This document shows, in pieces, positions 1-39,133 of a DNA stretch of 39,133 nucleotides. The notes under the pieces were generated by a model. That model was not told the DNA's origin and ran no database searches. It saw nothing but the letters and a program-made list of their open reading frames with translations. The position numbers and the translations under genes were made by a program. The stretch lies in the sequence record MZ234009.1. One strand, written 5' to 3'. This DNA is from Escherichia phage vB_EcoP-22664BS1. Within the stretch, counting starts at the first letter, position 1. Every line of letters starts with the position of its first letter.

Positions 1-3000
1 ATGCAGGAACGAGAGGAGCGCTCTACGTGGTTCGGTTTCGGTGCGGCTACAGAAGCTGAAGTGAAGAACTCTATGGTCGGCGTGGCTATCCGCGCTGGTC
101 AGACCGAGGACTCACTTGATGTCATTGGCGATGTGTTCAACCCGACCCGCTGGAACAACCATAAGTGGTCTCGTGAGGAGTTGGACCAGATTCGTAACGC
201 TGGGGTTCTGCCTCAGTATTACGGGGTCATTACTGGTGGCTCCCCTCAGAACCTGACCGAGCTTATTAACTTTGCGCTTGAGAACCAGAAGTTGGACCAA
301 GAGAAGGCCAAGGCTGGGACTGGTGCTCAACTGGCGGCTGGTGTGATTGGTGCTGGCGTGGACCCTCTGACCTACGTTCCTATTGCTGGGCAGGTAGGTA
401 AAGGTGGGAAGCTAGTCAACAAGATGTTCACTGTGGCTGCTCAGTCTGGTGCTCTGGCTGGGGCATCCGAGATTGCTCGAACCTCAGTTGCTGGTGGGGA
501 CGCTCATGTGGCTGAGGCAATTATGGGCGGTGCTCTCTTCGGTGGGGGAATGACAGCTATCGGGGACGCTATCGGCAAGGCCTTAGGCAAGTCAACCAAC
601 GAGTTCGCCGGACCAGCCACACGTCTGGAAGCCCGTGAGACTGCACGTAATGTTGATGGTCAGGACCTGTCGCGTATGCCAATCCGTGAAGGAGAGGAGA
701 CCTTTAGTCATCAAGGTGTTAAGTTCGCAGACGTTCCGAACGAGCCGGGTAGTGTACGACTGGAAGATGGTTCAATCCTGATTGGTGAGAATCCTCTGAA
801 CCCTAAGACACGTAAAGTCTTTGACGAAGTGATTGAGCCTGAACGTGCCGCTGCTGGTGTGAACCTTGGTGGGCTGACTGAGATTGGCCTGAAGCTGCTT
901 CGGTCCGAGAACCCTGAGATTCGTGGAGTAGCTGCTGACTTAGTACGTTCACCGACTGGTATGCAGTCTGGGGCCTCAGGTAAAATAGGGACAACTGCGT
1001 CAGACGTATTCGAGAGACTTCGTGCTGTGGACCATCGGTTCTACAATGACATCGACGATGCGGTTACTGAGGCACTAAAGGACCCGTACTTCCAGACAGC
1101 ATTCTGGCGAGACTCTGGCGCATTCCGTCAAGACATCTATCAGCGCGTGTCTATGGCTATCGAAGATGGTAGCGGAAACCTGAAGGCTGAATTGACTCCG
1201 GGAGAACTGAAAGTCTATGACCTGCTGAAGAACCAGTTTGACGCCAAGCGTGAGATGATGGAGAACCCAGCTATGTTTGGTCGCCCAGACGCTCAGTCTA
1301 TCTTTCCGGGTAGCCGCTTCAAGGGAACATACGTCCCGCATGTGTATAGCAACCAGATGAAGGAGCTGTACATCAAGGAGCTTGGGAGTCCAGAGGCACT
1401 ACAGGAGGCCATCAAGAAGTCATGGTTGACCAGCTATGCGTCTCGACCTGAAGTCAAGAAACGTGTGGACGAGGAACTCTTAGAGGCTGACCCTACGTTG
1501 ACTCCAGAAGGACTTGCGGCTGCGGTCGATAAGTACGCCAACGATAAGGCTTATGGTATCTCTCACACCGAGCAGTTCGAGCGTTCATCCGTAATGGAAG
1601 AGAACATCAATGGTCTGGTGGGTCTGGAGAACAACAGCTTCCTTGAGGCTCGTAACCTGTTCGATAGCGATATGTCAATCGTCCTACCTAACGGTCAGAC
1701 CTTCAGTGTCAACAACCTGCGTGAGTGGGACATGGACAAGATTGTCCCGGCCTACAACCGTCGAGTTAATGGCGATATTGCTATCATGGCTGGTACAGGC
1801 AAGACCACGAAGGACATGAAGGACTTGGTTGAGACCCTGATGAACAAGGCTGGGGATGACGGTAAGTTGAAAGGTGAAGTATCTACCTTACGTGACACTT
1901 TGAAGATTCTAACTGGTCGTGCTCGACGTGATGGTGCTGATGATGCGGCCTTCGCTACCGTGATGCGCACAATGACAGACCTATCGTTCTTCGCTAAGAA
2001 TGCCTACATGGGTGTTCAGAACTTAACGGAGATTGGTGGTATGCTGGCTCGTGGTAACGTTCGTGCAATGCTTCATGGAGTCCCAATTTTCCGTGACCTA
2101 GCCTTCCGTAACAAGAAGGTTGGGGCCTCAGAGATTAAGGACCTGCACAATGTTATCTTCGGTAAGGAACTGGATGACTCAATCCGTCCGTCTAAACAGG
2201 ATGTCATTGACCGTCTGCGATCTTACAGTGACCTCGGTCGTGGTACAGCTACAGCTCTGGGGACTGCCAAGTATTACACTGGCGAACTTGCAGTACGCTC
2301 TCCGTTCACTAAAGTCCTCAACGGTACGACCAACTACCTGTTAGATGCTGGACGTCAGGGCTTCCTGTCTGACATCGTGGAGCATAGCCTGACTGGTAGT
2401 AAGCGTAAGTTCGATGACCGCTGGCTGAAGACCGCTGGTATCTCTGACGAGCAGTGGAAGGGCATTAAGTCCCTAATCCGTGAGTCAGTGACTCGTGGTC
2501 CAGACGGGAAGTACACCATCAAGGATAAGAAGGCGTTCAGTCAGGACCCAAGGGCTATGGACCTCTGGCGTATGGGTGACACCATCGCTGATGAGACCCT
2601 GCTCCGCCCCCACAAGCTGAGCAACATGGACGCCAAGGCTTATGGTCCGATAGCGAAGACTGTCTTGCAGTTTAAGAACTTCGTTATCAAGTCTATCAAC
2701 GGTCGAACCATGCGTACCTTCTACAATGCCACCAAGAACAACCGAGCTATGGACGCTGCGCTGTCAACGGTTATGTCTATGGGTCTGGCTGGAATGTACT
2801 ACATGGCTCAGGCGCACATAAAGGCTTACGCTATGCAGGACGGTCGTGACCGAGAGTATCTGAAGCAAGCCCTTAACCCAACAATGATTGGCTATGCGGC
2901 GCTGTCCCGTAGCTCCCACTTAGGTGGTCCTCTTGGGGTCGCCAACATTCTGGGTGGAATCGCTGGGTATGAGGACACTAAGATGCTCCGCTCGTCAATC

Positions 3001-3303
3001 CTTCCGCGCTCACCTACCGAGAAGACGGAGAAGCCAATCGCCTTTGGTGCTGCTTCCAGTGGTCCGGTAATGAATGTGGTCGGCAACTTCCTTGAGCAGG
3101 TCCCGGCTTTCGGCTATGCTGCTAACGTTGGTGCTACGGCTTACAACTTGGCGGGATACCTCAAGGCTGATACCCGTGTCAACGAGCGAGACTACATGAC
3201 CGGGATGTATAACACGTTCCGTGAACTTGTACCGAATGACCCGATTACCCAGAAGTTGCTGCTTGGAACGTTTGAGGAGCAGGGCATCCACATCAAGGAC
3301 TAA
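1..3303 (+). CDS. 16: Internal virion protein D (gp16), C-terminal 1100 aa; 5' partial at window start, continues in frame from 38549..39133 if the sequence is circular
   Basis: ORF track 1..3303; colinear similarity to recalled T7 gp16 from about residue 215 (STFFGF...GVDPLSYVP...SPTGMQSGASGK...GTYVPHVY...NPTMI); position before gene 17. Confidence 0.9.
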   Translation: MQEREERSTWFGFGAATEAEVKNSMVGVAIRAGQTEDSLDVIGDVFNPTRWNNHKWSREELDQIRNAGVLPQYYGVITGGSPQNLTELINFALENQKLDQEKAKAGTGAQLAAGVIGAGVDPLTYVPIAGQVGKGGKLVNKMFTVAAQSGALAGASEIARTSVAGGDAHVAEAIMGGALFGGGMTAIGDAIGKALGKSTNEFAGPATRLEARETARNVDGQDLSRMPIREGEETFSHQGVKFADVPNEPGSVRLEDGSILIGENPLNPKTRKVFDEVIEPERAAAGVNLGGLTEIGLKLLRSENPEIRGVAADLVRSPTGMQSGASGKIGTTASDVFERLRAVDHRFYNDIDDAVTEALKDPYFQTAFWRDSGAFRQDIYQRVSMAIEDGSGNLKAELTPGELKVYDLLKNQFDAKREMMENPAMFGRPDAQSIFPGSRFKGTYVPHVYSNQMKELYIKELGSPEALQEAIKKSWLTSYASRPEVKKRVDEELLEADPTLTPEGLAAAVDKYANDKAYGISHTEQFERSSVMEENINGLVGLENNSFLEARNLFDSDMSIVLPNGQTFSVNNLREWDMDKIVPAYNRRVNGDIAIMAGTGKTTKDMKDLVETLMNKAGDDGKLKGEVSTLRDTLKILTGRARRDGADDAAFATVMRTMTDLSFFAKNAYMGVQNLTEIGGMLARGNVRAMLHGVPIFRDLAFRNKKVGASEIKDLHNVIFGKELDDSIRPSKQDVIDRLRSYSDLGRGTATALGTAKYYTGELAVRSPFTKVLNGTTNYLLDAGRQGFLSDIVEHSLTGSKRKFDDRWLKTAGISDEQWKGIKSLIRESVTRGPDGKYTIKDKKAFSQDPRAMDLWRMGDTIADETLLRPHKLSNMDAKAYGPIAKTVLQFKNFVIKSINGRTMRTFYNATKNNRAMDAALSTVMSMGLAGMYYMAQAHIKAYAMQDGRDREYLKQALNPTMIGYAALSRSSHLGGPLGVANILGGIAGYEDTKMLRSSILPRSPTEKTEKPIAFGAASSGPVMNVVGNFLEQVPAFGYAANVGATAYNLAGYLKADTRVNERDYMTGMYNTFRELVPNDPITQKLLLGTFEEQGIHIKD

Positions 3304-6147: not shown

Positions 6148-6159
6148 ATCTCTTAAGTG

Positions 6160-6205
6160 TTAGACTCAAGGTCATTACTGTGTGTAGTGGCCTTTATGGT
6201 TAACA
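6160..6205 (+). promoter_or_regulatory. Conserved hairpin element (RNase III processing-site-like, R18.5 position)
   Basis: agactcaaggtc...gtggcctttatgg motif shared with elements at 15301 and 22521 and with recalled T7 RNase III sites. Confidence 0.45.
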
Positions 6206-6257
6206 CTAACTAGTGGAGGAGACTCTACGTGAAATCTGATAAACCGGGAGGGCAACT

Positions 6258-6707
6258 ATGCTCGAATTTTTAAAGAGAGCGGCTCCGTGGTTACTTGCAG
6301 CAGTGATGTTTGCTGGTGGCTACCACACCGCTAACAATAAGTGGGGGGCTAAGGTCAATGCAGAATACACCTCGAATCTTAAGGCATCGGAAGATACAAG
6401 GCTTGCTGTCCAAGCTGAAGTCAACAAAGTGTCCAAACGGTTTCAGGACGAAATGTCCTCGCTGGAAGGCAGCACTGATAGGATTATTGCTGACCTTCAG
6501 TCTGACAATAAGCGGTTGCGCATCCGAGTCAAACCAACGAGTGGAACCACGCAAAGTGACGGTCGATGCTTCATTGATGGTTACGCCGAACTTGACGAAC
6601 GAGATGCTAAACGTCTTATCGCCATCGGAGTGAAAGGAGACAAGTGGATTAAGGCCCTTCAAGACACTGTGAGAGCCTTACAGCAAGAGAAGGAGGTGAC
6701 GCATTGA
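6258..6707 (+). CDS. 18.5: i-spanin (gp18.5, Rz-like)
   Basis: Similarity to T7 gp18.5 (MLEFL...DRIISDLRSDNKRLR.RVK); N-terminal TM segment. Confidence 0.85.
6358..6633 (+). CDS. 18.7: o-spanin (gp18.7, Rz1-like lipoprotein) embedded in +1 frame inside gp18.5; start codon uncertain (6310 or 6358)
   Basis: Embedded ORF with lipobox-like LTISGC and similarity to T7 gp18.7 (PRWKGALIGL...ISGCASES...SLMV.PNLT.EMLNV). Confidence 0.6.
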   Translation: MQNTPRILRHRKIQGLLSKLKSTKCPNGFRTKCPRWKAALIGLLLTFSLTISGCASESNQRVEPRKVTVDASLMVTPNLTNEMLNVLSPSE

Positions 6708-8467
6708 GTAAAGACTTAGTGGCGCGTCAGGCGCTAATGACTGCACGTATGAAGTCAGACTTCGTGTTCTTCCTGTTCGTCCTGTGGAAAGCTCTGTCGC
6801 TCCCAGTCCCTACTCGCTGTCAGATTGACATGGCGAAGAAACTATCGGCTGGGGACAACAGGCGCTTCATCCTACAGGCGTTCCGTGGTATAGGGAAGTC
6901 CTTCATTACGTGTGCCTTCGTTGTCTGGAAGCTATGGAACAACCCAGACTTGAAGTTCATGATTGTGTCGGCCTCAAAGGAACGAGCCGATGCTAACTCC
7001 ATCTTCATCAAGCGAATCATCGACCTCATGCCTCAGCTTCAGGAACTCAAACCTAAGCAGGGTCAGCGAGATGCGGTTATCAGCTTCGACGTTGGACCGG
7101 CTAAGCCAGACCACTCACCTTCGGTTAAGTCCGTTGGTATCACTGGTCAGTTGACTGGTAGTCGTGCTGACATCCTGATTGCCGATGACGTGGAGGTTCC
7201 GAACAACTCAGCGACTCAGGCTGCACGAGACCGTCTATCAGAGCTTGTGAAAGAGTTCGACGCTATCCTGAAGCCGGGAGGTACGATCATCTATCTGGGT
7301 ACTCCTCAGAACGAGATGACACTGTATCGTGAGCTGGAAGGTCGTGGGTACACCACTACTATCTGGCCCGCTCGTTATCCACGCGACAGGAAGGACTGGC
7401 AGTCTTACGGTGACCGTCTGGCACCGATGCTTCAGGTAGAGCTTGAAGAGGACCCTGAGTCCTTCTACTGGCGTCCGACTGATGAAGTACGCTTCGATGA
7501 TACGGACCTGAAGGAGCGTGAGCTGTCCTACGGTAAAGCTGGCTTCGCTCTACAGTTCATGCTTAACCCGAACCTGAGTGATGCTGAGAAGTATCCTCTT
7601 AAGCTCCGTGACCTTATCGTAGCCGACTTGGACCCAGCGTCCAGCCCAATGGTCTACCAATGGTTGCCAAACCCTCAGAACAAGCGTGAGGACGTTCCTA
7701 ACGTGGGACTCATGGGTGACTCGTACCACACGTATCAGACTGTAGGTTCTGCCTTCAGCTCATACACCCAGAAGATTCTGGTCATTGACCCTAGTGGTCG
7801 TGGTAAGGATGAAACTGGTTATGCGGTACTGTATCAGCTCAACGGCTACATCTTCGCTATGGAAGTAGGTGGTATGCGTGGTGGCTATGAAGACTCTACT
7901 CTGGAAGCACTGGCTAAGATTGGTCGTAAGTGGAAGGTCAACGAATACGTCATTGAGGGTAACTTCGGTGATGGTATGTACCTTGAGCTATTCAAGCCTG
8001 TAGCGGCCCGTATCCATCCTGCTGCTGTAACCGAAGTGAAGAGTAAGGGTCAGAAAGAACTCCGCATCTGTGACGTTCTTGAGCCTATCATGGGGTCTCA
8101 CCGACTTATCGTCAACGCTGCTGCTATCGTCCAAGACTATCAGACAGCCTCTGACAAGGATGGTGTTCGTAACCCTATCTACTCTCTCTTCTACCAGATG
8201 ACACGTATCTCTCGTGAACGTGGAGCCTTGGCACACGATGACCGACTTGATGCGCTGGCTATAGGTGTACAGTTCTTCGTTGAGTCTATGGCTAAGGATG
8301 CCAACAAGGGAGAACGTGAAGTCACTGAGGAGTGGCTGGAGGAACAGATGGAGAACCCACGGAAAGGCTTCGAGTCCATCCACACTGAGTTCTGGGACAA
8401 TGGGGTCCGGGTAACTCACAATACGGACGACGAGCTTGGACTAGGGTCATACGTTACGTTCCACTAG
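6704..8467 (+). CDS. 19: Terminase large subunit (gp19), probable TTG start
   Basis: Strong colinear similarity to T7 gp19 ([21 protein letters not shown]...[18 protein letters not shown]...); RBS aaggagg 6 nt before TTG. Confidence 0.95.
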
Positions 8468-8513: not shown

Positions 8514-8561
8514 AACCTATAGTTACTACCAGTCTAACATACTGTTTTACAAGGAGTTTGG

Positions 8562-9351: not shown

Positions 9352-9452
9352 GACCTTGAGTCACTACCTACAGTCTAACTACCTACAGTCTAACTACCTA
9401 CAGTCATCGACCATCGGTAATGCCGCTACCTACAGTCATCGACCTACAGTTA
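9352..9452 (+). repeat. Array of short direct repeats (ctaactacctacagt; at least 5 copies of cctacagt) inside the left end
   Basis: Seen directly; analogous position to the CCTAAAG repeat array next to the T7 terminal repeat. Confidence 0.6.
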
Positions 9453-9850: not shown

Positions 9851-9902
9851 ACTACAGGGTCTTTGAGTCTACATCTGAAGGCCCTGACTGATAGTCACTA
9901 AC
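9851..9902 (+). promoter_or_regulatory. Early-region conserved element (actacagg...ggcctgactgatagtcactaac), putative RNase III processing site
   Basis: One of four related copies, each preceding an early gene. Confidence 0.35.
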
Positions 9903-9909
9903 TTAAAGG

Positions 9910-10164
9910 ATGGACACTATGAAACACTTAAGCACAATCACTAATCGCAATGAAGTATTCGTGAACACTAAAGGTTATGCGTGGATTCAGCTTAAAGAGA
10001 TGACAGGAGCGCGTCACCGTGTGGTAGTGCGCAAGGTATCAAGCAAGCAGTTCAGCAACTACAGCGTCGATACTGTGCGTATAGACAACGAGACATACCT
10101 GATAGACTCGCAGATAACCGTGAGTCCTACAGTGGGCGTCTCAGCTCCTTATTTCGCTAACTGA
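9910..10164 (+). CDS. Early protein, unknown function (84 aa)
   Basis: ORF track; RBS aaggatgg; first gene after host promoters. Confidence 0.5.
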   Translation: MDTMKHLSTITNRNEVFVNTKGYAWIQLKEMTGARHRVVVRKVSSKQFSNYSVDTVRIDNETYLIDSQITVSPTVGVSAPYFAN

Positions 10165-10173
10165 GAGTGATTA

Positions 10174-10219
10174 ACTACAGGTCGTTAGACTGATAGCGGC
10201 CTGACTGATAGTCACTAAC
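10174..10219 (+). promoter_or_regulatory. Early-region conserved element, copy 2
   Basis: actacaggtcgttagactgatagcggcctgactgatagtcactaac. Confidence 0.35.
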
Positions 10220-10247
10220 ACATAATTAACTTTGAGAGGATATAACT

Positions 10248-10903: not shown

Positions 10904-10947
10904 ACTACAGGTCATCAATGCTGGTGGCCTGACTGATAGTCATTAAC
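10904..10947 (+). promoter_or_regulatory. Early-region conserved element, copy 3
   Basis: actacaggtcatcaatgctggtggcctgactgatagtcattaac. Confidence 0.35.
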
Positions 10948-10963
10948 AACTGAGAGGGAAGAT

Positions 10964-11191
10964 ATGAACACAATCACTGGTGCCATAACCAAAGGTTTTC
11001 GAGCAATTTTCGGTGAAACGCAAGAAGTATGCACCAATCATAAATTCGTACTTTCTTGCGTAGCAGGTGACGAGTTTGACGGGTTCGATAAACTGGTGGT
11101 TTGCGACCATTGCGGACAAGAGGCTATCCAACACTCAAACGGTAAATTTGAATTAATAGACGATAGCCTTACAGAAGGAGACGGCGAGTAA
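10964..11191 (+). CDS. Early small protein with four Cys (C-x8-C...C-x2-C), putative zinc ribbon
   Basis: ORF track; RBS gagggaag; cysteine pattern in translation. Confidence 0.5.
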   Translation: MNTITGAITKGFRAIFGETQEVCTNHKFVLSCVAGDEFDGFDKLVVCDHCGQEAIQHSNGKFELIDDSLTEGDGE

Positions 11192-11323
11192 CCTAAATAA
11201 ACAGGAGAGAACCAAATCATAGCTTGACCATAACACTGACGTGATGGTACTGAGTGATAGACGAGAGGTCATCGACTGATAGGTGGCCTCAAAGATTACC
11301 ACTTACATTGATAGGAGTTAACT

Positions 11324-15280: not shown

Positions 15281-15303
15281 CCTAAACTATCACTATAGGC
15301 TTA
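15281..15303 (+). promoter_or_regulatory. Phage RNAP promoter (phi1.1-like)
   Basis: cctaaactatcactataggc. Confidence 0.65.
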
Positions 15304-15345
15304 GACTCAAGGTCATGACTCAAAGTCGTGGCCTTCATGATTAAC
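15301..15345 (+). promoter_or_regulatory. Conserved hairpin element (RNase III-like, R1.1 position)
   Basis: ttagactcaaggtcatgactcaaagtcgtggccttcatgatta. Confidence 0.45.
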
Positions 15346-15376
15346 CCTAAATAAACACTACTGGAGATTTAACCGT

Positions 15377-19232: not shown

Positions 19233-19723
19233 TGAGCAAGAAGTTTAAACTGTTAGTAGATGCGCATGGCTGGCCTAGTGGGACTATAGTTACCAAGTGT
19301 GAGAATGACCCCGTACCAGATTCAAGAATGACCCTAGTTGAGTGCCAGACTCCAGGCGCATACAAACATGGGTCTAACGGCTGCAATACTCAGCCTGAGG
19401 GTATGTGGGGAGCATGGGTCCTTAATTGGAAACTTGAGGAAATCAAGCCGGAAGAGAAACTCACTGGTGTCCAAACCACTCAAGTCCTGCCAGCTTCGAG
19501 CGTACCGCCTGTGACTTTGAAGCGTGAAGTCCTGACCATCGACAAGATTGGTGTAGGCCAGACGTTCATCGTCCATGGAAAGCCTGAAGAAGTTTACGTG
19601 AAGATTAGCAACTCACACGTCTTCAACCATAAGCATCTCCAGATGCACACCACGGACGCACAACGCTTCACCCAGCACCTGAATCTGGTTGTCGTAGAAT
19701 TGGTGGTGTACAATGGTAAGTAA
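19232..19723 (+). CDS. Hypothetical protein (163 aa) between endonuclease I and lysozyme; no T7 counterpart recognised
   Basis: ORF track 19229..19723; AGGAG 8 nt before ATG at 19232; TGATG overlap with gene 3. Confidence 0.55.
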   Translation: MSKKFKLLVDAHGWPSGTIVTKCENDPVPDSRMTLVECQTPGAYKHGSNGCNTQPEGMWGAWVLNWKLEEIKPEEKLTGVQTTQVLPASSVPPVTLKREVLTIDKIGVGQTFIVHGKPEEVYVKISNSHVFNHKHLQMHTTDAQRFTQHLNLVVVELVVYNGK

Positions 19724-20226
19724 GGTACAGTTCAATCCACGGTCCCGGACCGACGCTATCTTCGTTCACTGTTCGGCTACCAAGCCAGAGATGGACATCG
19801 GGGTAGAGACCATCCGTATGTGGCACAAGCAGCAAGGCTGGCTGGACGTAGGCTACCACAGAGACCATCCGTATGTGGCACAAGCAGCAAGGCTGGCTGG
19901 ACGTAGGCTACCACTTTATCATCAAGCGCGATGGTACTGTGGAAGAGGGACGCCCTGTCAATGTCGTAGGGTCACACGTTAAGGACTGGAACTCACGGTC
20001 TGTAGGCGTCTGCCTTGTAGGTGGAATTGACGCTAAGGGCAAGTTTGAAGCTAACTTCACTCCAGCCCAGATGAACTCCCTGCGCAACAAGCTGGCTGAC
20101 CTGAAGGACTTGTATCCTCAGGCAGAAATCAAGGCTCACCACGATGTAGCACCAAAGGCTTGCCCAAGTTTCGACTTGCAGCGCTGGCTTAACACTAACG
20201 AACTGGTCACTTCCGACCGAGGCTAA
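19713..20226 (+). pseudogene. 3.5: Lysozyme / N-acetylmuramoyl-L-alanine amidase (gp3.5) disrupted by a 55-bp tandem duplication (19805..19859 = 19860..19914) causing a frameshift
   Basis: Track ORFs 19713..19982 and 19873..20226 both match T7 lysozyme (N part TDAIFVHCSATKP...WHKQQGWLDVGYH; C part FIIKRDGTVE...HHDVAPKACPSFD...ELVTSDRG); the 55-bp unit is repeated exactly and deleting one copy restores one ORF of about 153 aa. Confidence 0.7.
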
Positions 20227-27822: not shown

Positions 27823-29391
27823 ATGGCTGAACGTGAAGGGTTCGCTGCTGAAGGCGCTAAGTCAGTTTATGATAGATTGAAGAACGGACGACAGCCTTAC
27901 GAGACCCGCGCACAGAACTGTGCTGCTGTCACTATCCCGTCACTGTTTCCTAAGGAATCAGACAACTCGTCTACTGAATATACCACTCCGTGGCAAGCTG
28001 TAGGTGCTCGCTGCTTGAACAACTTGGCTGCAAAGCTGATGTTGGCGTTATTCCCTCAGTCACCGTGGATGCGACTGACAGTCTCCGAATATGAGGCCAA
28101 GACCTTGAGTCAGGACTCAGAGGCTGCTGCTCGTGTTGACGAAGGGCTTGCTATGGTCGAGCGTGTGTTGATGGCCTACATGGAGACTAACAGTTTCCGT
28201 GTGCCATTGTTCGAAGCTCTGAAGCAGCTTATCGTCTCCGGTAACTGTCTGCTTTACATTCCAGAGCCTGAACAGGGTACTTACAGTCCGATGCGGATGT
28301 ACCGCTTAGTGTCTTACGTTGTTCAACGTGATGCGTTCGGTAACATCTTGCAGATTGTGACTCTCGACAAGGTAGCTTTCAGTGCTCTACCGGAAGACGT
28401 GAAGTCTCAACTCAATGCAGACGACTATGAGCCTGACACCGAGCTTGAAGTGTATACGCACATCTACCGTCAAGACGACGAGTATCTACGCTACGAGGAA
28501 GTGGAAGGGATTGAGGTAGCAGGGACCGATGGTTCCTACCCGCTGACTGCATGTCCGTACATCCCGGTACGAATGGTTCGACTGGATGGTGAAGACTACG
28601 GTCGTTCTTACTGCGAGGAGTATCTGGGCGACCTTAACTCGCTGGAGACGATTACAGAAGCTATCACCAAAATGGCTAAGGTAGCCTCCAAGGTGGTGGG
28701 ACTCGTTAACCCGAACGGTATCACGCAACCTCGACGTCTGAACAAGGCGGCTACAGGTGAGTTCGTGGCTGGTCGCGTTGAGGACATCAACTTCCTGCAA
28801 CTGACGAAAGGTCAGGACTTTACGATTGCCAAGTCGGTGGCTGACGCTATCGAGCAACGTTTAGGCTGGGCCTTCCTTCTTAATAGTGCTGTTCAGCGTA
28901 ATGCAGAGCGTGTCACTGCTGAAGAGATTCGTTATGTTGCTGGCGAACTGGAGGCGACATTAGGTGGCGTGTACTCAGTACAGTCACAAGAGCTTCAGTT
29001 ACCTATCGTCCGTGTGCTGATGAACCAGCTTCAGTCTGCTGGCATGATTCCTGACCTTCCGAAAGAAGCGGTAGAGCCTACGGTCTCCACTGGTCTTGAA
29101 GCGTTAGGCCGTGGTCAAGACTTAGAGAAGCTGACTCAGGCAGTCAACATGATGACCGGGCTACAGCCTCTGGCTCAGGACCCAGACATTAACTTGCCTA
29201 CCCTGAAGCTGCGACTGCTGAATGCCTTAGGCATTGACACCGCTGGTCTACTCCTTACGCAGGACGAGAAGATTCAGCGCATGGCTGAACAGTCGTCTCA
29301 ACAGGCAGTAGTCCAAGGTGCTGGTGCTGCTGGTGCCAACATGGGCGCTGCTGTAGGTCAGGGAGCTGGTGAGGACATGGCTCAAGCCTAA
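27823..29391 (+). CDS. 8: Portal (head-to-tail connector) protein (gp8)
   Basis: Extensive colinear identity to T7 gp8 (YETRAQNCA, TPWQAVGAR, YRLVSYVVQRDAFGN, VRLDGEDYGRSY, ERVTAEEIRYVA). Confidence 0.97.
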   Translation: MAEREGFAAEGAKSVYDRLKNGRQPYETRAQNCAAVTIPSLFPKESDNSSTEYTTPWQAVGARCLNNLAAKLMLALFPQSPWMRLTVSEYEAKTLSQDSEAAARVDEGLAMVERVLMAYMETNSFRVPLFEALKQLIVSGNCLLYIPEPEQGTYSPMRMYRLVSYVVQRDAFGNILQIVTLDKVAFSALPEDVKSQLNADDYEPDTELEVYTHIYRQDDEYLRYEEVEGIEVAGTDGSYPLTACPYIPVRMVRLDGEDYGRSYCEEYLGDLNSLETITEAITKMAKVASKVVGLVNPNGITQPRRLNKAATGEFVAGRVEDINFLQLTKGQDFTIAKSVADAIEQRLGWAFLLNSAVQRNAERVTAEEIRYVAGELEATLGGVYSVQSQELQLPIVRVLMNQLQSAGMIPDLPKEAVEPTVSTGLEALGRGQDLEKLTQAVNMMTGLQPLAQDPDINLPTLKLRLLNALGIDTAGLLLTQDEKIQRMAEQSSQQAVVQGAGAAGANMGAAVGQGAGEDMAQA

Positions 29392-29409
29392 ACTATCACT
29401 ATAGGAACA
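29387..29409 (+). promoter_or_regulatory. Phage RNAP promoter (phi9-like)
   Basis: cctaaactatcactataggaac. Confidence 0.65.
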
Positions 29410-29485
29410 ACACCGTAAGTCCAACTCTAGGTGAGTCAACTAGACGAGGCAGGTGTTACCTATTAACTACCAAAGGAGAGACTTA

Positions 29486-30370
29486 ATGTCCCAATCAGTT
29501 TATGCCGAGTTCGGCGTTAGTCCTAATGCAATCACTGGTTCCGTTGAGGACCTGAACGAACACCAGAAGTCTATGCTTGAACAGGACGTAGCTGTTCGTG
29601 ATGGCGATGACGCTATTACCTTCAAGCAACTGGAAGCCGAAAACGAAGAGGCGACCGAAGAAGACGAGAACGTCGAAGAGACTGAGGGTGCTGAAGACAA
29701 CGAGTCCGATGACGAAGAGTCTGAGACCGATGGTGAGCAGCCGGAGTTCATCGAACTAGGTGATGCGCCGAAAGAGCTGACCGAAAGTGTCACCGCTCTG
29801 GATGAAAACGAAGCTGCATTTGACGACATGGTGTCTTCCGCTGTAGAAGCTGGCAAGGTCACTGCTGATGAAATTACCGCTATCAAGGCTGAATACGCCA
29901 AGGACGGTAAGCTGTCTGACGCATCCTACGCTAAGTTGCAGGAAGCAGGTTACACCAAGCGTTTCGTAGATTCGTTTGTACGTGGTCAGGAAGCTCTGGC
30001 TGAACAGTATGCTGCTGGTGTGGTTCGCTATGCTGGTGGTGCTGAACAGTTTAATCGAATCCTGTCACACCTTGAGTCCAACGACCCGTCAACTCGTGAA
30101 GCACTGGAAGCTGCTATCGTTCGTAAGGACATTGCGACTACCAAAGCTCTGCTGAATCTTGCTGGAAAGACACTTGGCAAAGCTGTAGGCGTTAAACCTC
30201 AGCGTACAATCACCACTCAGGCTAAACCTGTGGTAGCACCTAAGGCTCCTCAGACCGAAGCATTCAGCTCTAAGGCTGACATGATTAAGGCTATGAGTGA
30301 CCCGCGATACCTGCGTGACGCTAAGTACACGATGGAAGTTCGCGCTAAGGTAGCTGCCTCAAGCCTGTAG
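29486..30370 (+). CDS. 9: Capsid assembly (scaffolding) protein (gp9)
   Basis: Acidic N-terminal half; C-terminal KAMSDPRY and AAGVVRYAGG match T7 gp9; RBS aaaggagag. Confidence 0.9.
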   Translation: MSQSVYAEFGVSPNAITGSVEDLNEHQKSMLEQDVAVRDGDDAITFKQLEAENEEATEEDENVEETEGAEDNESDDEESETDGEQPEFIELGDAPKELTESVTALDENEAAFDDMVSSAVEAGKVTADEITAIKAEYAKDGKLSDASYAKLQEAGYTKRFVDSFVRGQEALAEQYAAGVVRYAGGAEQFNRILSHLESNDPSTREALEAAIVRKDIATTKALLNLAGKTLGKAVGVKPQRTITTQAKPVVAPKAPQTEAFSSKADMIKAMSDPRYLRDAKYTMEVRAKVAASSL

Positions 30371-30373
30371 TTG

Positions 30374-30396
30374 ACTAAACTATCACTATAGGGAGA
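30374..30396 (+). promoter_or_regulatory. Phage RNAP promoter (phi10-like), full consensus
   Basis: tgactaaactatcactatagggagacc. Confidence 0.75.
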
Positions 30397-30498
30397 CCAA
30401 GAGACAGACTCAAGGTTTCCCTATTACTTCAGTCCATACGGATTGGGCATACAGTAAGTAATAAACTTTATCTTTCAATTGAATAGGAGAATTATCAT

Positions 30499-31548
30499 AT
30501 GGCAAACGTTCCGGGTCAGAAAGTTGGTACAGACCAAGGTAAAGGCAAATCTGGTTCCGACGCTCTGGCGTTGTTCCTGAAGGTCTTTGCTGGCGAAGTC
30601 CTGACAGCATTCACTCGCCGCTCTGTAACTGCTGACAAGCATATTGTCCGTACCATTCAGAACGGTAAGTCTGCTCAGTTCCCGGTCATGGGTCGCACCT
30701 CTGGTGTGTATCTGGCTCCGGGTGAGCGACTGTCCGATAAGCGTAAAGGTATCAAACATACCGAGAAAGTGATTACCATTGATGGTCTGCTGACTGCCGA
30801 TGTGATGATTTTCGACATTGAAGACGCGATGAACCACTATGACGTGGCTGGCGAGTACTCCAACCAGTTGGGCGAAGCTCTGGCTATCGCTGCCGATGGT
30901 GCGGTACTGGCTGAGATGGCTATTCTGTGTAACCTACCGGCTGCATCTGATGAAAACATCGCTGGTCTTGGCAAAGCGTCTGTGCTGAAAGTTGGTACTA
31001 AAGCAGACCTGAACACTCCGGCTAAGCTGGGTGAAGCAATCATCGGTCAACTGACCATTGCTCGTGCGAAGCTGACATCCAACTACGTTCCTGCTGGCGA
31101 CCGTTACTTCTACACCACGCCGGACAACTACTCTGCAATCCTCGCGGCTCTGATGCCGAACGCTGCTAACTATGCTGCGCTGATTGACCCAGAGACTGGT
31201 AACATCCGTAACGTAATGGGCTTCGTGGTTGTTGAAGTTCCACACTTGACTCAGGGTGGTGCTGGGGAAACTCGTGGTGCCGATGGTATCACTATTGCGA
31301 CTGGTCAGAAGCACGCCTTCCCAGCTACTGCTACTGGTGATGTTAAAGTTGCTCTGGACAACGTTGTGGGCCTGTTCTCTCACCGTTCTGCTGTAGGTAC
31401 TGTTAAGCTGCGTGACTTGGCGCTGGAACGTGACCGTGACGTCGATGCTCAGGGCGACCTGATTGTTGGTAAGTACGCTATGGGTCACGGTGGTCTGCGT
31501 CCAGAAGCAGCAGGCGCACTGGTTTTCACAGCGGCGTCAGCGGGTTAA
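30499..31548 (+). CDS. 10: Major capsid protein (gp10A)
   Basis: Near-identity with T7 gp10A over long stretches (KHTEKVITIDGLLTADV, ALMPNAANYAALIDPE, HRSAVGTVKLRDLALER, YAMGHGGLRPEAAGA). Confidence 0.97.
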   Translation: MANVPGQKVGTDQGKGKSGSDALALFLKVFAGEVLTAFTRRSVTADKHIVRTIQNGKSAQFPVMGRTSGVYLAPGERLSDKRKGIKHTEKVITIDGLLTADVMIFDIEDAMNHYDVAGEYSNQLGEALAIAADGAVLAEMAILCNLPAASDENIAGLGKASVLKVGTKADLNTPAKLGEAIIGQLTIARAKLTSNYVPAGDRYFYTTPDNYSAILAALMPNAANYAALIDPETGNIRNVMGFVVVEVPHLTQGGAGETRGADGITIATGQKHAFPATATGDVKVALDNVVGLFSHRSAVGTVKLRDLALERDRDVDAQGDLIVGKYAMGHGGLRPEAAGALVFTAASAG

Positions 31549-31811
31549 CGACCCTTAAGGCCCTCTCTACAGAGGGTCCTACCTTAGAGACGTATAGTTC
31601 TACGGTGGGAACCAGCCTGAAGGTTGACTTCCCTGAGCTTTCAGATGTGACCGATTGGTCGCTGCTTGAGGTGACTACGCCTGATGGTGTTAGCTACTCC
31701 CGTAGAACCAACAGTCTCTACTTCAAGGCCACCTCTGGCGTGGAAGGTCTCGTGATTGTTGGGTATGACTGGACGCCTGTGCGTTCCTTCAACGTATCTT
31801 TCACAAACTAA
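30499..31811 (+). CDS. 10: Predicted minor capsid protein 10B made by -1 ribosomal frameshift at GGTTTTC (31521..31527), extending about 94 codons to the stop at 31809..31811
   Basis: Hand translation of 31527..31605 in the -1 frame shows no stop, and that frame continues into track ORF 31605..31811; heptamer position matches the known T7 10A/10B frameshift region. Confidence 0.55.
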
Positions 31812-31814
31812 TTG

Positions 31815-31858
31815 AAACCCCTTGGGTGCCTTCGGGTGCTTGAGGGGTTTTTTTTCTT
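31815..31858 (+). terminator. Intrinsic terminator (T-phi-like) after the capsid gene
   Basis: aaccccttgggtgccttcgggtgcttgaggggtttttttt: GC-rich hairpin plus T8 tract, resembling T7 T-phi. Confidence 0.75.
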
Positions 31859-31970
31859 AAGGAGGGACTATGGTCCTTATTTACACAGGGTTAGCACTAT
31901 TCGTCTTATTCTGGGCGTACCTGCTGTCCAGCTCACCGTCTAGCGCCTATGACCGTTAAGGAGTAAACCT

Positions 31971-32537
31971 ATGGCTCAATACATTACACTGAATGCTAAC
32001 GATGACTTAGATGCCATCAACGATATGTTAGCAGCTATCGGTGAACCAGCAGTCCTACAGCTTGACGAAGGTAACGCTGACGTCTCGAACGCTCAACGTA
32101 TCCTGCATCGTGTCAATCGTCAGGTCCAAGCTAAAGGCTGGAACTTTAACATCAACGAAGCTGCTGTCCTGACACCTGATGTCCAAGACAATAGGATTCG
32201 ATTCCTGCCGTCTTACCTTCGGGTCATGACTGCTGGTGCTACCAGTTACTACAGCAACATGGGGGGCTATCTCTATGACCTGTCCACTCAGTCCACGACC
32301 TTCACTGGACCAATTACAGTCGAACTGGTGGAGATGAAACCGTTCGCTGAGATGCCTGTAGTATTCCGTGACTACATCGTTACCAAGGCCAGCCGTGAGT
32401 TCAACGCTAAGTTCTTCGGTAGCCCAGAGTCTGAACTGTACCTTCGTGAGCAGGAAGCAGAACTCTATCAGCAGGTCATGGAATACGAGATGGATACTGG
32501 TCGCTACAACATGATGTCAGACATCGGGAGGGACTAA
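31971..32537 (+). CDS. 11: Tail tubular protein A (gp11)
   Basis: Colinear with T7 gp11 (NAQRILH.VNRQVQAKGWNFNI.E, EMP..FR.YIVTKASR.FN..FFG.PE, EYEMD.G.YNM). Confidence 0.9.
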   Translation: MAQYITLNANDDLDAINDMLAAIGEPAVLQLDEGNADVSNAQRILHRVNRQVQAKGWNFNINEAAVLTPDVQDNRIRFLPSYLRVMTAGATSYYSNMGGYLYDLSTQSTTFTGPITVELVEMKPFAEMPVVFRDYIVTKASREFNAKFFGSPESELYLREQEAELYQQVMEYEMDTGRYNMMSDIGRD

Positions 32538-32764
32538 TGGCTAGTCACAACCTGAAGATTCACCGCCAGCACTTTGGTCCGGTACAACTAGGTCTAAAGA
32601 CAGCAGAGCTGAGACTTAACGACCGGGACTTTAAGGTTGGCGACTGGCTTATCCTGAATGAGTGGGACAACGGGTATACTGGACAACAGGTAGCGCGTAA
32701 GGTTGTCCACATTGCTGACGTTGGTGAGATCGCTGAGGGATATGTCCTAATGAGTATGATTTAA
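32537..32764 (+). CDS. DUF3850/ASCH-like small protein (75 aa) inserted between tail tube genes 11 and 12
   Basis: ATGA overlap with gp11 stop; motif H.LKI....F..V..G.KT.E.R.NDRDF.VGD.L.L.EW....YTG matches my memory of the DUF3850 consensus. Confidence 0.6.
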   Translation: MASHNLKIHRQHFGPVQLGLKTAELRLNDRDFKVGDWLILNEWDNGYTGQQVARKVVHIADVGEIAEGYVLMSMI

Positions 32765-32773
32765 GGAGAGCCT

Positions 32774-35131
32774 ATGCCATTAATTACGCAAAGCATAAAA
32801 AATCTTAAAGGTGGTATTAGCCAACAGCCTGACATCCTGAGGTTCTCAGACCAAGGCGAGGCTCAAGTTAACTGCTGGTCATCCGAGAGTGATGGCCTCC
32901 AGAAGCGTCCACCTACAGTCTTCAAGCGACGTCTTAACATCGACGTTGGGAGCAACCCTAAGTTCCACCTGATTAACCGTGATGAGCAGGAGCAGTATTA
33001 CATCGTGTTCAACGGGTCCAACATTCAGGTAGTCGACTTGAGCGGTAATCAGTACTCAGTTTCAGGTGCGGTAGACTACGTTAAGTCGTCCAACCCGCGA
33101 GATGACATCCGTGTCGTTACAGTTGCAGACTATACGTTCGTCGTTAACCGTAAGGTTGTCGTTAAAGGTGGAAGCGATAAGTCACACTCTGGTTATAATC
33201 GTAAAGCACGCGCTTTAATTAACCTGCGTGGTGGACAGTATGGTCGCACCCTTAAGGTAGGAATCAACGGAGGCGTTAAGGTTTCGCATAAGTTGCCAGC
33301 AGGTAATGATGCCGAGAATGACCCTCCTAAGGTTGATGCTCAGGCTATCGGTGCAGCTCTGAGAGACCTTCTTGTTGCTGCTTACCCTACCTTCACGTTC
33401 GACCTTGGGTCTGGATTCCTGTTAATCACTGCCCCTTCAGGGACTGACATTAACTCAGTGGAGACGGAGGATGGCTACGCTAACCAGCTAATCAGCCCAG
33501 TACTCGACACGGTGCAAACAATCTCTAAGCTGCCTCTTGCAGCTCCAAATGGGTACATCATTAAGATTCAAGGTGAGACCAACAGTAGCGCCGATGAGTA
33601 TTACGTGATGTATGACTCCAACACTAAGACGTGGAAGGAGACAGTAGAGCCGGGAGTGGTCACTGGGTTCGATAACACCACAATGCCACATGCTCTGGTT
33701 AGACAATCTGACGGCTCCTTTGAGTTCAAGACTCTGGACTGGTCTAAGCGGGGTGCTGGTAATGATGACACAAACCCTATGCCTAGCTTCGTGGATGCTA
33801 CGATTAACGATGTGTTCTTCTACAGGAACAGGCTAGGGTTCTTGTCAGGAGAGAACGTAATCATGAGCCGTTCAGCCAGCTACTTTGCGTTCTTCCCTAA
33901 GAGTGTGGCGACATTGAGTGATGATGACCCTATTGACGTAGCTGTAAGTCACCCTAGAATCTCAATACTTAAGTATGCCGTTCCGTTTAGCGAGCAGCTA
34001 CTACTTTGGTCAGATGAGGTGCAGTTCGTGATGACAAGCTCGGGGGTCCTTACCTCGAAGTCTATCCAGCTTGATGTAGGCTCAGAGTTTGCCTTAGGAG
34101 ATAACGCCAGACCGTTCGCTGTAGGACGCTCAGTCTTCTTCTCAGCGCCTCGTGGGTCATTCACCAGTATTAAGCGATACTTCGCTGTAGCAGATGTGTC
34201 TGACGTGAAGGATGCCGATGATACCACTGGTCACGTACTGTCCTATATCCCTAACGGGGTGTTTGACATTCAAGGTACAGGGACTGAGAACTACATCTGC
34301 GTCAACTCCACAGGTGCATACAACCGAATCTACATCTACAAGTTCTTGTTTAAGGACGGCGTACAACTTCAAGCCTCTTGGTCGCACTGGGAGTTCCCTA
34401 AAGCTGATAAGATTCTGGCGTCTGCGTCGATTGGCTCTACCATGTTCATTGTTCGTCAGCACCAAGGGGGTGTGGACATTGAGCACCTTAAGTTCATCAA
34501 GGAGGCAACCGACTTTCCATTAGAGCCGTATAGACTCCACGTTGACTCTAAGGTGTCTATGGTAATCCCAATTGGCTCATATAACGCTGACACCTATGAG
34601 ACTACGGTCGACATTGGTTCTGCTTATGGTGGAAACGCTCCGTCTCCCGGTCGGTACTATCTGATTGACAGTCAGGGTGCCTATGTGGACCTTGGTGAAC
34701 TGACCAGCATCTCAACTGTGGCTATACTCAATGGCGATTGGTCGGGACGTACAGTGTTCATCGGACGGTCTTATCTGATGTCCTACAAGTTCTCACGGTT
34801 CCTGATTAAGATTGAAGACGATAGTGGCACTCAGTCTGAAGACACTGGACGTCTACAGCTTCGTAGGGCTTGGGTCAACTACAAGGACACCGGCGCTCTT
34901 AGACTCATTGTCAGAAACGGTGAGCGGGAGTTCGTGAACACCTTTAATGGGTACACCCTTGGTCAGCAACCCATCGGGACTACCAACATTGGGGACGGTC
35001 AGTATCGCTTCGCTATGAATGGTAACGCATTAACCACGAGTCTAACCTTAGAGTCAGACTATCCTACCCCAGTGTCCATCGTTGGGTGTGGCTGGGAGGC
35101 GTCATACGCTAAGAAAGCTCGTTCCGTCTAA
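32774..35131 (+). CDS. 12: Tail tubular protein B (gp12)
   Basis: Colinear with T7 gp12 (SQSIKNLKGGISQQPDILR, FFYRNRLGFLSGEN, DDDPIDVAVS, RRAWVNY, GCGWE). Confidence 0.95.
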   Translation: MPLITQSIKNLKGGISQQPDILRFSDQGEAQVNCWSSESDGLQKRPPTVFKRRLNIDVGSNPKFHLINRDEQEQYYIVFNGSNIQVVDLSGNQYSVSGAVDYVKSSNPRDDIRVVTVADYTFVVNRKVVVKGGSDKSHSGYNRKARALINLRGGQYGRTLKVGINGGVKVSHKLPAGNDAENDPPKVDAQAIGAALRDLLVAAYPTFTFDLGSGFLLITAPSGTDINSVETEDGYANQLISPVLDTVQTISKLPLAAPNGYIIKIQGETNSSADEYYVMYDSNTKTWKETVEPGVVTGFDNTTMPHALVRQSDGSFEFKTLDWSKRGAGNDDTNPMPSFVDATINDVFFYRNRLGFLSGENVIMSRSASYFAFFPKSVATLSDDDPIDVAVSHPRISILKYAVPFSEQLLLWSDEVQFVMTSSGVLTSKSIQLDVGSEFALGDNARPFAVGRSVFFSAPRGSFTSIKRYFAVADVSDVKDADDTTGHVLSYIPNGVFDIQGTGTENYICVNSTGAYNRIYIYKFLFKDGVQLQASWSHWEFPKADKILASASIGSTMFIVRQHQGGVDIEHLKFIKEATDFPLEPYRLHVDSKVSMVIPIGSYNADTYETTVDIGSAYGGNAPSPGRYYLIDSQGAYVDLGELTSISTVAILNGDWSGRTVFIGRSYLMSYKFSRFLIKIEDDSGTQSEDTGRLQLRRAWVNYKDTGALRLIVRNGEREFVNTFNGYTLGQQPIGTTNIGDGQYRFAMNGNALTTSLTLESDYPTPVSIVGCGWEASYAKKARSV

Positions 35132-36261: not shown

Positions 36262-38544
36262 ATGGCTAGTAATATTGAATCAGCTCTGGCTAATCGGACT
36301 ATGGGTCGTGGCAGGGCTCCGGGTAAAACTATCGCCGTCAACTATCAAGCAGCCAGCGTTCAGGCTCCTACTGGTGACTCCGGTCTGGCTCGTGCGTTAA
36401 CCAACTTCGTTGAGTCTGGGACAGGATTGTACAAGCAGTTCAAGGACGAGGAGAAGACACGGGCCGACGAGCGGTCTAACGAGATTATCCGTAAACTGAC
36501 ACCTCAGCAAAGACGTGAGGCTATCCAGAACGGTACATTGCTGTATCAGGATGACCCTTACGCTATGGAAGCACTTCGAGTCAAGACGGGCCGTAACGCT
36601 GCCTTTGCGGTTGATGACGAGATTAACGTTAAGATTCAGAACGGTGAGTTCCGTACACGTCAGGACATGGAAGAGTATCGCCACCAGAGACTTCAGGACG
36701 CCGCTAAGTCCTATGCTGAAGAGGCGGGTATCAACCCTACCGACGAGTTCTTCCAGCGTGGATTCAACGATAACATCACAGACCGAAACATCGCTATCTA
36801 TGGGTCTTTCAATAAGTATTTCAGCAAGCAGTCTGAAGAGACAGCAATGTTGAACACTCGTATTGAGATGAACTCATTCCTGAACGATGGGGACCTGATG
36901 CGTTCTCCTGAGTCTGGAAAGACCTTCATGGCCTACCTTCGGGATGGACTAACGACTGCTGCTATCCCTTCGGACCAGCGAGCACGAGAGGTCATTACCC
37001 AGACGGTCCGTGACGCAATCCAGAAGTCAGGTGGCTCAAACTTCCTACAGCAAGTACGAGGCGAGCGAATCACCCTTAACGGCGTGGACGCTACAGTCGA
37101 AGAGATTGTAGGACCTGATGTCTTCAACGCTGCTATTGTTGAGGCTCAAGGTACCGAGTACAAGTTGGTGGCTAAGTATCAGGAAGACTTATCGTTAGGC
37201 GTTCAGTCTGCGATTCTTCAGGACGACCCAACCATCGGTCTGGCCCAGATTCAGAAACTCAAGGAGCAGAACAACCTGCTTCAGCCGGGGGAAGAACTCA
37301 CGCCTCAGCGTCAGATGCTTATTAATGCCGAAGCCAGCTTACTGGAAGCGGTCAAGCGTAAGTCTGCTGAACAGGCGAAGGAGAACACGAAGTTAATCCA
37401 GACCCAGAACAAGCAACTGGTCATTGACCAAGTTTATCAGCGACGTCTGGCTGGAGACAACGTGTCCACCAACTATGAGGACCTTCCTGTCTCTGAAGCC
37501 ACAGGAGAGTTCAAGCGTTCAGACATGAACAATTATGCGTCTTCTAAGCTACAGCAGATTGACCAGATGGACATCCCTGAGGCTGCTAAGGACGCCCAGA
37601 AGGTGGCATTGTTAAGAGCTGACACTAACAACGGTCCGTTCCGTAATGCCTTCCAGACGCTTACTCAGGACGCTGCTGGTGAGTGGCAAGCTGCTGTCAT
37701 CCGTGGACAGTACGACCCAGACAAGATGAAACGCTTCGAGTCTCTTCGTCGTGCCTACACTCAGGACCCTTCAAGTTTCGCTGCTCTGTATCCTGACCAA
37801 GCTCAGTTGTTCTCTACGTTCGACCAGATGGACAAGATGGGTCTGGACCCTCAGACGATGATTGAAGCTGATAAGCAAGCTGCAAGTCAAAGCCGTGAGA
37901 TGCGCATGGAGTCAGACAAGGCGTGGCAGGAGTTGAAGAACGACTCTCGGAATAAGGACCTTTCGCGTCTTCCTACGTCTCTAGACTCAAGTGCTCGTAA
38001 GGTCTGGGACTCATGGTACTACCGTACAGGTAACGCTGATGCTGCAACGCAGCAGACTCAACGCTGGCTGAATGAGAACACCGTAACGTTCCAGTCTGAA
38101 GGTTCTGACGGTAAGTCCATCGGCATGGTGTCCAAGCACCAGCTTATGGTCGGGGATAACCCAGAGTCGTGGCAGGTGGGTAGAGACATTATCGACACCG
38201 CTCGTCAGCAGCTCATTAAGGCCAACCCTTGGGTAGTGAACTCTCAGTTGTCCGTCGTTGAACAAAACGGCTCTATCTTCCTCCAAGACGCTACAGGGAC
38301 TATTCGTATTCGCTACGATAAAGAACTTGTAGGTAAACTCTACCGCGAACAACAGCAGAAGGCACAAGATGCCGCATACGCTCAGGCAGAACGTGACGCT
38401 AACAAGCGAGCGCGTATCGTCGGGACTAAAGCTGCTGGTGACAAACGTCGAGCTGACCGAGAGGCCAACATCGAGAAGCGCGGAGGGATGTACAATGACG
38501 TCTCATTGGAGGGTATCGCAAACGTACTAATCGGTAAGGAGTAA
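36262..38544 (+). CDS. 15: Internal virion protein C (gp15)
   Basis: 760 aa; size and synteny as T7 gp15; RBS agaggagg. Confidence 0.85.
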   Translation: MASNIESALANRTMGRGRAPGKTIAVNYQAASVQAPTGDSGLARALTNFVESGTGLYKQFKDEEKTRADERSNEIIRKLTPQQRREAIQNGTLLYQDDPYAMEALRVKTGRNAAFAVDDEINVKIQNGEFRTRQDMEEYRHQRLQDAAKSYAEEAGINPTDEFFQRGFNDNITDRNIAIYGSFNKYFSKQSEETAMLNTRIEMNSFLNDGDLMRSPESGKTFMAYLRDGLTTAAIPSDQRAREVITQTVRDAIQKSGGSNFLQQVRGERITLNGVDATVEEIVGPDVFNAAIVEAQGTEYKLVAKYQEDLSLGVQSAILQDDPTIGLAQIQKLKEQNNLLQPGEELTPQRQMLINAEASLLEAVKRKSAEQAKENTKLIQTQNKQLVIDQVYQRRLAGDNVSTNYEDLPVSEATGEFKRSDMNNYASSKLQQIDQMDIPEAAKDAQKVALLRADTNNGPFRNAFQTLTQDAAGEWQAAVIRGQYDPDKMKRFESLRRAYTQDPSSFAALYPDQAQLFSTFDQMDKMGLDPQTMIEADKQAASQSREMRMESDKAWQELKNDSRNKDLSRLPTSLDSSARKVWDSWYYRTGNADAATQQTQRWLNENTVTFQSEGSDGKSIGMVSKHQLMVGDNPESWQVGRDIIDTARQQLIKANPWVVNSQLSVVEQNGSIFLQDATGTIRIRYDKELVGKLYREQQQKAQDAAYAQAERDANKRARIVGTKAAGDKRRADREANIEKRGGMYNDVSLEGIANVLIGKE

Positions 38545-38548
38545 CATA

Positions 38549-39133
38549 ATGGCGACTCGTGGTATTCGCAATAACAATCCGGGTAACATCCGGGTAAGTA
38601 AGGACCAATGGGAAGGAATGACTGGAGATGATGGCGCATTCGTCACCTTCGATAGTCCAGAGTCTGGCGTCCGAGCTTTAGGTAAAAACCTGCTGTCCTA
38701 CGGTCGCCAAGGTTATGATTCCATCGAGAAGATTATCAACAGATGGGCACCTCCTAACGAGAACGACACTAAGGCTTATATTGACTCAGTGGTGGCTGCA
38801 ACTGGTATTCCAGCTACACAGAGTCTCGACCTATCGGACCCTGACACCCTGTCTTCTCTGGCACAAGCTATCAGCTTCCATGAGACAGGCTCACGGTACG
38901 ACCCTGAAGTCTATCAGAAGGGAGTCGCACGGGCACTCAACGGCATTAGCCCAAAGACTCCACCAGTAAGCGCTAACGTATTTGACGCACTCACGGAAGG
39001 ACTCAAGTCTAAACCTAAAGTAGCTCTGGGTGAGAACCTTCCGACCGCTGCTGGTCTTAACATTGAGGGTCAAGCACCTGAAGCTCCCAACGAATCGTTC
39101 GGTGAGATGTTCTATAAGTCTACTGGCGAGACC
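38549..39133 (+). CDS. 16: Internal virion protein D (gp16), N-terminal 195 codons; 3' partial at window end, in frame with position 1
   Basis: ATG 5 nt after gp15 stop; last residues ...FYKSTGET join MQEREERSTWFGFG at position 1, matching T7 gp16 ...ETHGETLDEYNSRSTFFGF; N-terminal about 150 aa do not resemble the T7 gp16 transglycosylase domain as I recall it. Confidence 0.85.
   Translation, partial: MATRGIRNNNPGNIRVSKDQWEGMTGDDGAFVTFDSPESGVRALGKNLLSYGRQGYDSIEKIINRWAPPNENDTKAYIDSVVAATGIPATQSLDLSDPDTLSSLAQAISFHETGSRYDPEVYQKGVARALNGISPKTPPVSANVFDALTEGLKSKPKVALGENLPTAAGLNIEGQAPEAPNESFGEMFYKSTGET

Follow-up and report, generated by a model that had tools for sequence, protein, structure and literature searches.

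The split lysozyme gene 3.5 in the genome record of Escherichia phage vB_EcoP-22664BS1 very probably stems from an untrimmed 55-nt assembly overlap

The sequence record MZ234009.1 of Escherichia phage vB_EcoP-22664BS1, whose full 39,133 nt are referred to here as the window, holds a T7-type lysozyme gene (gene 3.5) with a tandem duplication inside it, and a gene 16 that is divided between both ends of the record. The features of these two loci, all of them on the plus strand, are the following:

19713..20226, plus strand: gene 3.5, T7-type lysozyme (N-acetylmuramoyl-L-alanine amidase and RNAP inhibitor); the actual gene runs from 19713 to 19859 and continues at 19915-20226
19713..19982, plus strand: apparent N-terminal ORF of gene 3.5, 89 aa, with 49 native residues followed by an out-of-frame tail
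19873..20226, plus strand: apparent C-terminal ORF, annotated as 'endolysin' QZI78465.1, 117 aa from the native Met36
19805..19859, plus strand: copy 1 of the 55-nt unit (TRF and script check)
19860..19914, plus strand: copy 2 of the 55-nt unit (TRF and script check)
38549..39133, plus strand: 5' part of gene 16, severed by the arbitrary record start and running in frame into 1..3303
1..3303, plus strand: remaining 3' portion of gene 16, with base 1 of the record at an ATG internal to the gene

The unit AGAGACCATCCGTATGTGGCACAAGCAGCAAGGCTGGCTGGACGTAGGCTACCAC is present twice, back to back, and the two copies are 100 % identical (19805-19859 equals 19860-19914), which confirms the exact 55-bp tandem duplication that an earlier note on this DNA had described. 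TRF reports a period of 55, 2.0 copies, and a score of 220, and the junction at 19859/19860 reads GGCTACCAC followed by AGAGACCATC. Not one further base of match is found in the flanks on either side: the sequence preceding the unit ends in ...GGGGT compared to ...CCAC at the end of the unit, while the unit begins with AGAGA... compared to TTTAT... at the beginning of the sequence that follows it. Microhomology at the boundaries is thus 0 nt by script check. An exact 55-nt tandem copy would be expected by chance about 3e-29 times in 39 kb, and besides the one at 19805-19914, MZ234009 contains no other exact tandem duplication of at least 20 nt.

The duplication shifts the reading frame of gene 3.5 and divides it into 19713..19982, with its 49 native residues, and 19873..20226, in agreement with the coordinates given in the earlier note. 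When one copy is removed in silico, a 459-nt ORF of 152 aa is obtained, so that the intact frame anticipated for a single-copy gene holds, while its length, previously put at about 153 aa, is corrected to 152 aa. The 89-aa ORF at 19713..19982, for which no match was found in Pfam, owes its existence solely to the duplication. When the collapsed ORF is aligned to T7 lysozyme (1ARO chain L), its residues 3-152 pair with 2-151 at E = 3e-70, and it matches positions 3-130 of the 131 of the Pfam profile Amidase_2 (PF01510) at E = 7.7e-17; both results bear out the original recognition of a T7-lysozyme-like gene. It also retains H19, H124, and C132, aligned with His17, His122, and Cys130 of T7 lysozyme, which are the zinc ligands of that enzyme. 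In the 117-aa ORF, the Amidase_2 match is confined to profile positions 37-130 and H19 is missing; the proposed loss of the His17-equivalent ligand from the C-terminal fragment is therefore correct.

Gene 3.5 lies between genes 3/3.2 and 3.7/4, as in K1F and other Kayfunavirus genomes. Compared to the gene 3.5 lysozyme of T7 (PDB 1LBA, 1ARO chain L), the collapsed ORF is full-length, keeps the three zinc-ligand positions, and occupies the same genomic position. The difference between both genes is that the one in MZ234009 was deposited as ORFs of 89 and 117 aa, a split that is attributed here to an artefact. By these alignments, the collapsed ORF is a full-length T7 lysozyme/Amidase_2 orthologue and an ordinary member of the family. 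An internal start in this gene has been considered before: for K1F (AM084414, 844-1197), the annotators proposed a product '3.5B' starting from the same Met as the 117-aa fragment, a speculative annotation that is independent of any duplication.

The comparison with relatives, which had been suggested as a check, yields a single-copy gene 3.5 both in a five-way alignment and in a BLAST search against LM33_P1. In the former, a clean 55-nt gap is observed in MZ234011, MZ234024, MZ234021, and K1F, among which the unit itself is invariant. In the latter, the alignment breaks exactly at 19859/19860 and resumes 55 nt back. A 1101-nt query around the repeat found matches in 245 phage records; the matches listed are two-piece, and the best spans 1046 nt, that is, 1101 minus 55. 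Matches to a 60-mer with the junction at its centre were obtained in 135 records, and the 12 of these 135 that were listed align as two pieces spanning 55 nt; no contiguous match to the 60-mer was found at E <= 1e-12 in 50,697 phage records. Similarly, a junction 30-mer is absent from IMG/VR, from the JGI metagenome contigs, and from the GTDB genome contigs, and the wild-type right boundary is found in IMG/VR viral contigs. Neither the exact 89-aa product nor the exact 117-aa product is present in a 153-billion-gene index, although the lack of these frameshift products in independent assemblies is negative evidence only.

A genuine duplication in the phage stock would imply that replication slippage or illegitimate recombination had occurred inside gene 3.5, resulting either in a lysozyme-null phage or in one that holds only the 117-aa fragment from Met36, one zinc ligand short, with altered lysis and RNAP regulation. 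The duplication is, after all, present in the deposited sequence, and the '3.5B' internal start of K1F at the same Met makes a 117-aa product conceivable. T7 mutants in gene 3.5 are viable, though impaired and poor in growth, which makes a null allele biologically possible. Against this origin, which is regarded as highly improbable, stand the boundaries lacking microhomology, the intact gene in the relatives, and a junction that is found in no other genome or contig searched. Furthermore, 22664BS1 has been reported as a good performer with a plaquing host range of 42 % (PMC8614997), a behaviour that would be unexpected of a lysozyme-null T7-like phage.

The remaining points against a genuine duplication come from the sister records. 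MZ234009 and 12 other genomes of the same submission were scanned for tandem duplications that are exact and 20-600 nt long. One exact 55-nt tandem duplication each is present in four of these 13 records, at unrelated sites and never with microhomology at the boundaries; the nine others hold no 55-nt duplication. Besides MZ234009, the records affected are:

MZ234023 (101120B2), 11118-11227: 55-nt duplication, intergenic, upstream of ocr
MZ234020 (101118B1, Vectrevirus), 30940-31049: 55-nt duplication inside gene 16, which is hence annotated as two overlapping CDSs
MZ234019 (101117UKE2), 6391-6500: 55-nt duplication, with the CDS 6295..7017 truncated to 6419..7072

The site of MZ234023 is single-copy in its near-twin MZ234022 as well as in MZ234044 and MZ234009, and that of MZ234020 is single-copy in the relatives sequenced by other laboratories (546-nt matches to a 601-nt query). 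Once their duplications are removed, MZ234019 and MZ234020 show 0 differences over 44,471 positions; MZ234032, with 44,471 nt, is free of duplication. The first three sister Kayfunavirus records scanned hold no duplications, and no exact tandem duplication was detected by the scan in LM33_P1, which comes from another laboratory.

A pair of genomes with zero substitutions, and yet with one 55-nt duplication each at different sites, cannot reasonably be explained by biology. Another argument against a genuine mutation in gene 3.5 is the length of the unit, which equals an assembler k and is shared by duplications at three unrelated positions in the sister records, two of which are otherwise identical. 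Because sister genomes carry 55-nt duplications at unrelated positions, the duplication in MZ234009 is considered, with high confidence, an artefact of assembly and curation and not a natural mutation. The earlier note held an artefact to be just as possible as a real allele; given the three sister records with 55-nt duplications, two of which are otherwise identical, the balance shifts strongly towards the artefact. Its suggestion that the phage naturally carries a null or truncated lysozyme allele, with a changed timing of lysis and transcription, finds no support, since 55-nt duplications recur in the sister records. A reversible or programmed duplication, or a '3.5B'-like isoform, was also considered and rejected: 3.5B needs no duplication, and 55-nt copies at unrelated loci have no biological rationale.

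Apart from the 55-nt duplications, the scan of the series detected just one exact tandem repeat, that of MZ234014, where a 54-nt unit is repeated 2.1 times at 38018-38130, in frame, within a minus-strand CDS (gp41-like), and flanked by TCGTCATC microhomology. This repeat looks like a genuine coding repeat, in contrast to the 55-nt artefacts. The repeat in MZ234009 is neither in frame nor flanked by microhomology, which also argues against its being genuine.

MZ234009 holds other repeated sequences of a different kind. An exact 15-nt tandem repeat of 2.9 copies, ACTACCTACAGTCTA, is located at 9363-9405, just inside the presumed left end of the genome; further degenerate copies of 'CTACAGT' are found nearby, and the array recalls the short repeats beside the T7 terminal repeats. 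The sequence CTAAACTATCACTATAGG(G/A)A forms a 31-nt family with at least seven copies, at 3300, 8974, 20450, 26549, 29388, 30375, and 35157, and it is also found at 8529, 11927, and 35123; its members presumably serve as promoters for the RNA polymerase of this K1F-like phage. Upstream of the early genes, CCTGACTGATAGTCA(C/T)TAAC is present in three copies (9874-9923, 10191-10220, and 10919-10968), which may represent a leader, an RNase III site, or a promoter; the orthologue of the middle copy lies within the artefactual 55-nt unit of MZ234023. Finally, a 65-nt direct repeat with 77 % identity connects 6148-6212 and 15289-15353. It has a hairpin-like core, GGTCAT.ACT....AGTGGCC, and may act in processing or as a terminator.

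The way in which the record was opened is visible in gene 16. A continuous frame of 1301 codons runs across the record ends; from the ATG at 38549, its two parts (585 + 3303 = 3888 nt) equal in length the gp16 gene of the closely related LM33_P1 (29165..33052). In all seven Kayfunavirus records examined (MZ234009 and six siblings), base 1 is the start of the gp16 CDS, and MZ234009 is colinear from the first to the last base with MZ234024.1 (1..39375) and MZ234021.1 (1..40233). The end and the start of the LM33_P1 record, which has the canonical T7-like orientation, map to 9170/9171, so MZ234009 is circularly permuted. No terminal repeat is found in MZ234009; the direct terminal repeat is either collapsed in this record or absent from it. 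The gene 16 split at a shared internal ATG, together with the lack of a terminal repeat, indicates that the assembly was taken to be circular and cut open at an arbitrary point common to the series. As a side effect, the 'gp16' CDS annotated across the Kayfunavirus series (1..3303) is about 195 N-terminal residues short.

When MZ234009 is re-opened in silico at 19860, a linear sequence of 39,133 nt is obtained whose first 55 nt are identical to its last 55 nt, an identity that does not extend to 56 nt. This is what would be expected from the following sequence of events. First of all, T7-like genomes that bear direct terminal repeats close into a cycle when assembled from short reads, and SPAdes prints such a cyclic path of the de Bruijn graph as a linear contig in which the last k bases repeat the first k bases; for 22664BS1, k would be 55. 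The contig of 22664BS1 would have been opened by chance inside gene 3.5, so that copy 1 (19805..19859) would correspond to its original 3' end and copy 2 (19860..19914) to its 5' end. Second, both ends would have been joined untrimmed at 19859/19860 and the circle rotated to the gene 16 ATG common to the series; rotation without trimming would turn the end overlap into an internal, back-to-back 55-nt duplication. Prokka would then have called the longest remaining ORF, of 117 aa, as the endolysin.

Regarding the choice of k, the largest value in the SPAdes set 21,33,55 is 55 (SPAdes manual), whereas the default multicell mode normally goes up to k = 127 with reads of at least 250 nt, such as those of a 2x300 MiSeq run. 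A final k of 55 therefore requires the assumption of --sc, --meta, an explicit -k, or short trimmed reads. The source paper reports a MiSeq run with the 600-cycle kit, assembly with SPAdes 3.13.0/3.14.1, mapping and handling as well as Mauve alignment in Geneious, and annotation with Prokka (PMC8614997). It states neither the k list nor the SPAdes mode, and the final k of 55 is deduced from the four exact 55-nt repeats; untrimmed rotation is likewise the step that would have made the overlap internal. In the same paper, no deposited raw reads were found for the series. It counts against this course of events that nine of the 13 records are without the duplication, so that the overlap was trimmed, or absent, in most cases. 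One of the sister records, MZ234010, begins and ends with the same 51 nt, which probably represent an end overlap that was not fully trimmed away.

An artefact could also have had another origin: ends wrongly joined while the sequence was edited by hand or scaffolded in Geneious, for example, or the read-through of a chimeric library fragment. The mapping and the Mauve alignment carried out in Geneious (PMC8614997) are compatible with such an origin, as are the identical ends of MZ234010, which at 51 nt instead of 55 nt show that end handling was not uniform. However, a mis-join or a chimera would not yield a repeat of exactly 55 nt at each of four sites, re-opening the record at the junction exactly reproduces the signature of a contig, and an overlap of 55 bp has been documented on a SPAdes phage contig (PMC8483715). 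These origins are consequently given almost no weight, and the untrimmed end overlap of the assembler is retained as the explanation of the duplication.

The duplication belongs to a known class, that of untrimmed assembler end overlaps. MZ234009 combines identical copies of k length, a de Bruijn assembler with a rotated record, and duplications of the same length in sister genomes. Like the terminal k-mer overlaps of circular SPAdes contigs, its repeat is exact, has the length of a standard k, and is found once per genome; its position is arbitrary regarding gene boundaries, the junction lacks microhomology, and the record was rotated after assembly. However, the overlap was left untrimmed in MZ234009 and lies within a gene in the interior of the record, not at the termini, and the value of k is unstated in the paper. 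In the documented case of PMC8483715, the 55-bp overlapping ends of the phage contig were trimmed before re-opening.

A further precedent is provided by T7-like przondoviruses, in which internal repeats of about 79 bp were observed in SPAdes/Shovill assemblies and proved artefactual on Sanger sequencing (PMC10438801). As in the case described here, these are Studiervirinae whose direct terminal repeats were collapsed by short-read assembly, and a short, exact, assembly-made repeat caused spurious features. They differ in that their repeats of about 79 bp lie mostly near the terminal-repeat region and were verified experimentally, whereas that of MZ234009 has 55 bp, lies in gene 3.5, and is identified from sequence comparisons.

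For the deposited data, MZ234009 carries a spurious frameshift that needs to be corrected, and the same correction is required for at least three sister records (MZ234019, MZ234020, and MZ234023) with a spurious 55-nt duplication of the same type. The annotation error has already been propagated into the literature, as QZI78465.1 of vB_EcoP-22664BS1 (19873-20226, 117 aa, 13.16-kDa) is tabulated as a real, 'slightly shorter' amidase in Table 1 of a 2025 review on anti-UPEC endolysins (PMC12031403). A single exact tandem duplication of assembler k length, without microhomology and in a rotated genome, can serve as an error screen for phage databases.

In the very improbable event that the duplication were real, 22664BS1 would be a well-plaquing Kayfunavirus with a frameshifted gene 3.5, in which a zinc-site-deficient 117-aa fragment might regulate RNAP without amidase activity. 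As an artefact of assembly and curation, the duplication is biologically unimportant: the real phage almost certainly holds one copy of the unit and an ordinary, intact gene 3.5 that encodes a lysozyme of 152 aa.
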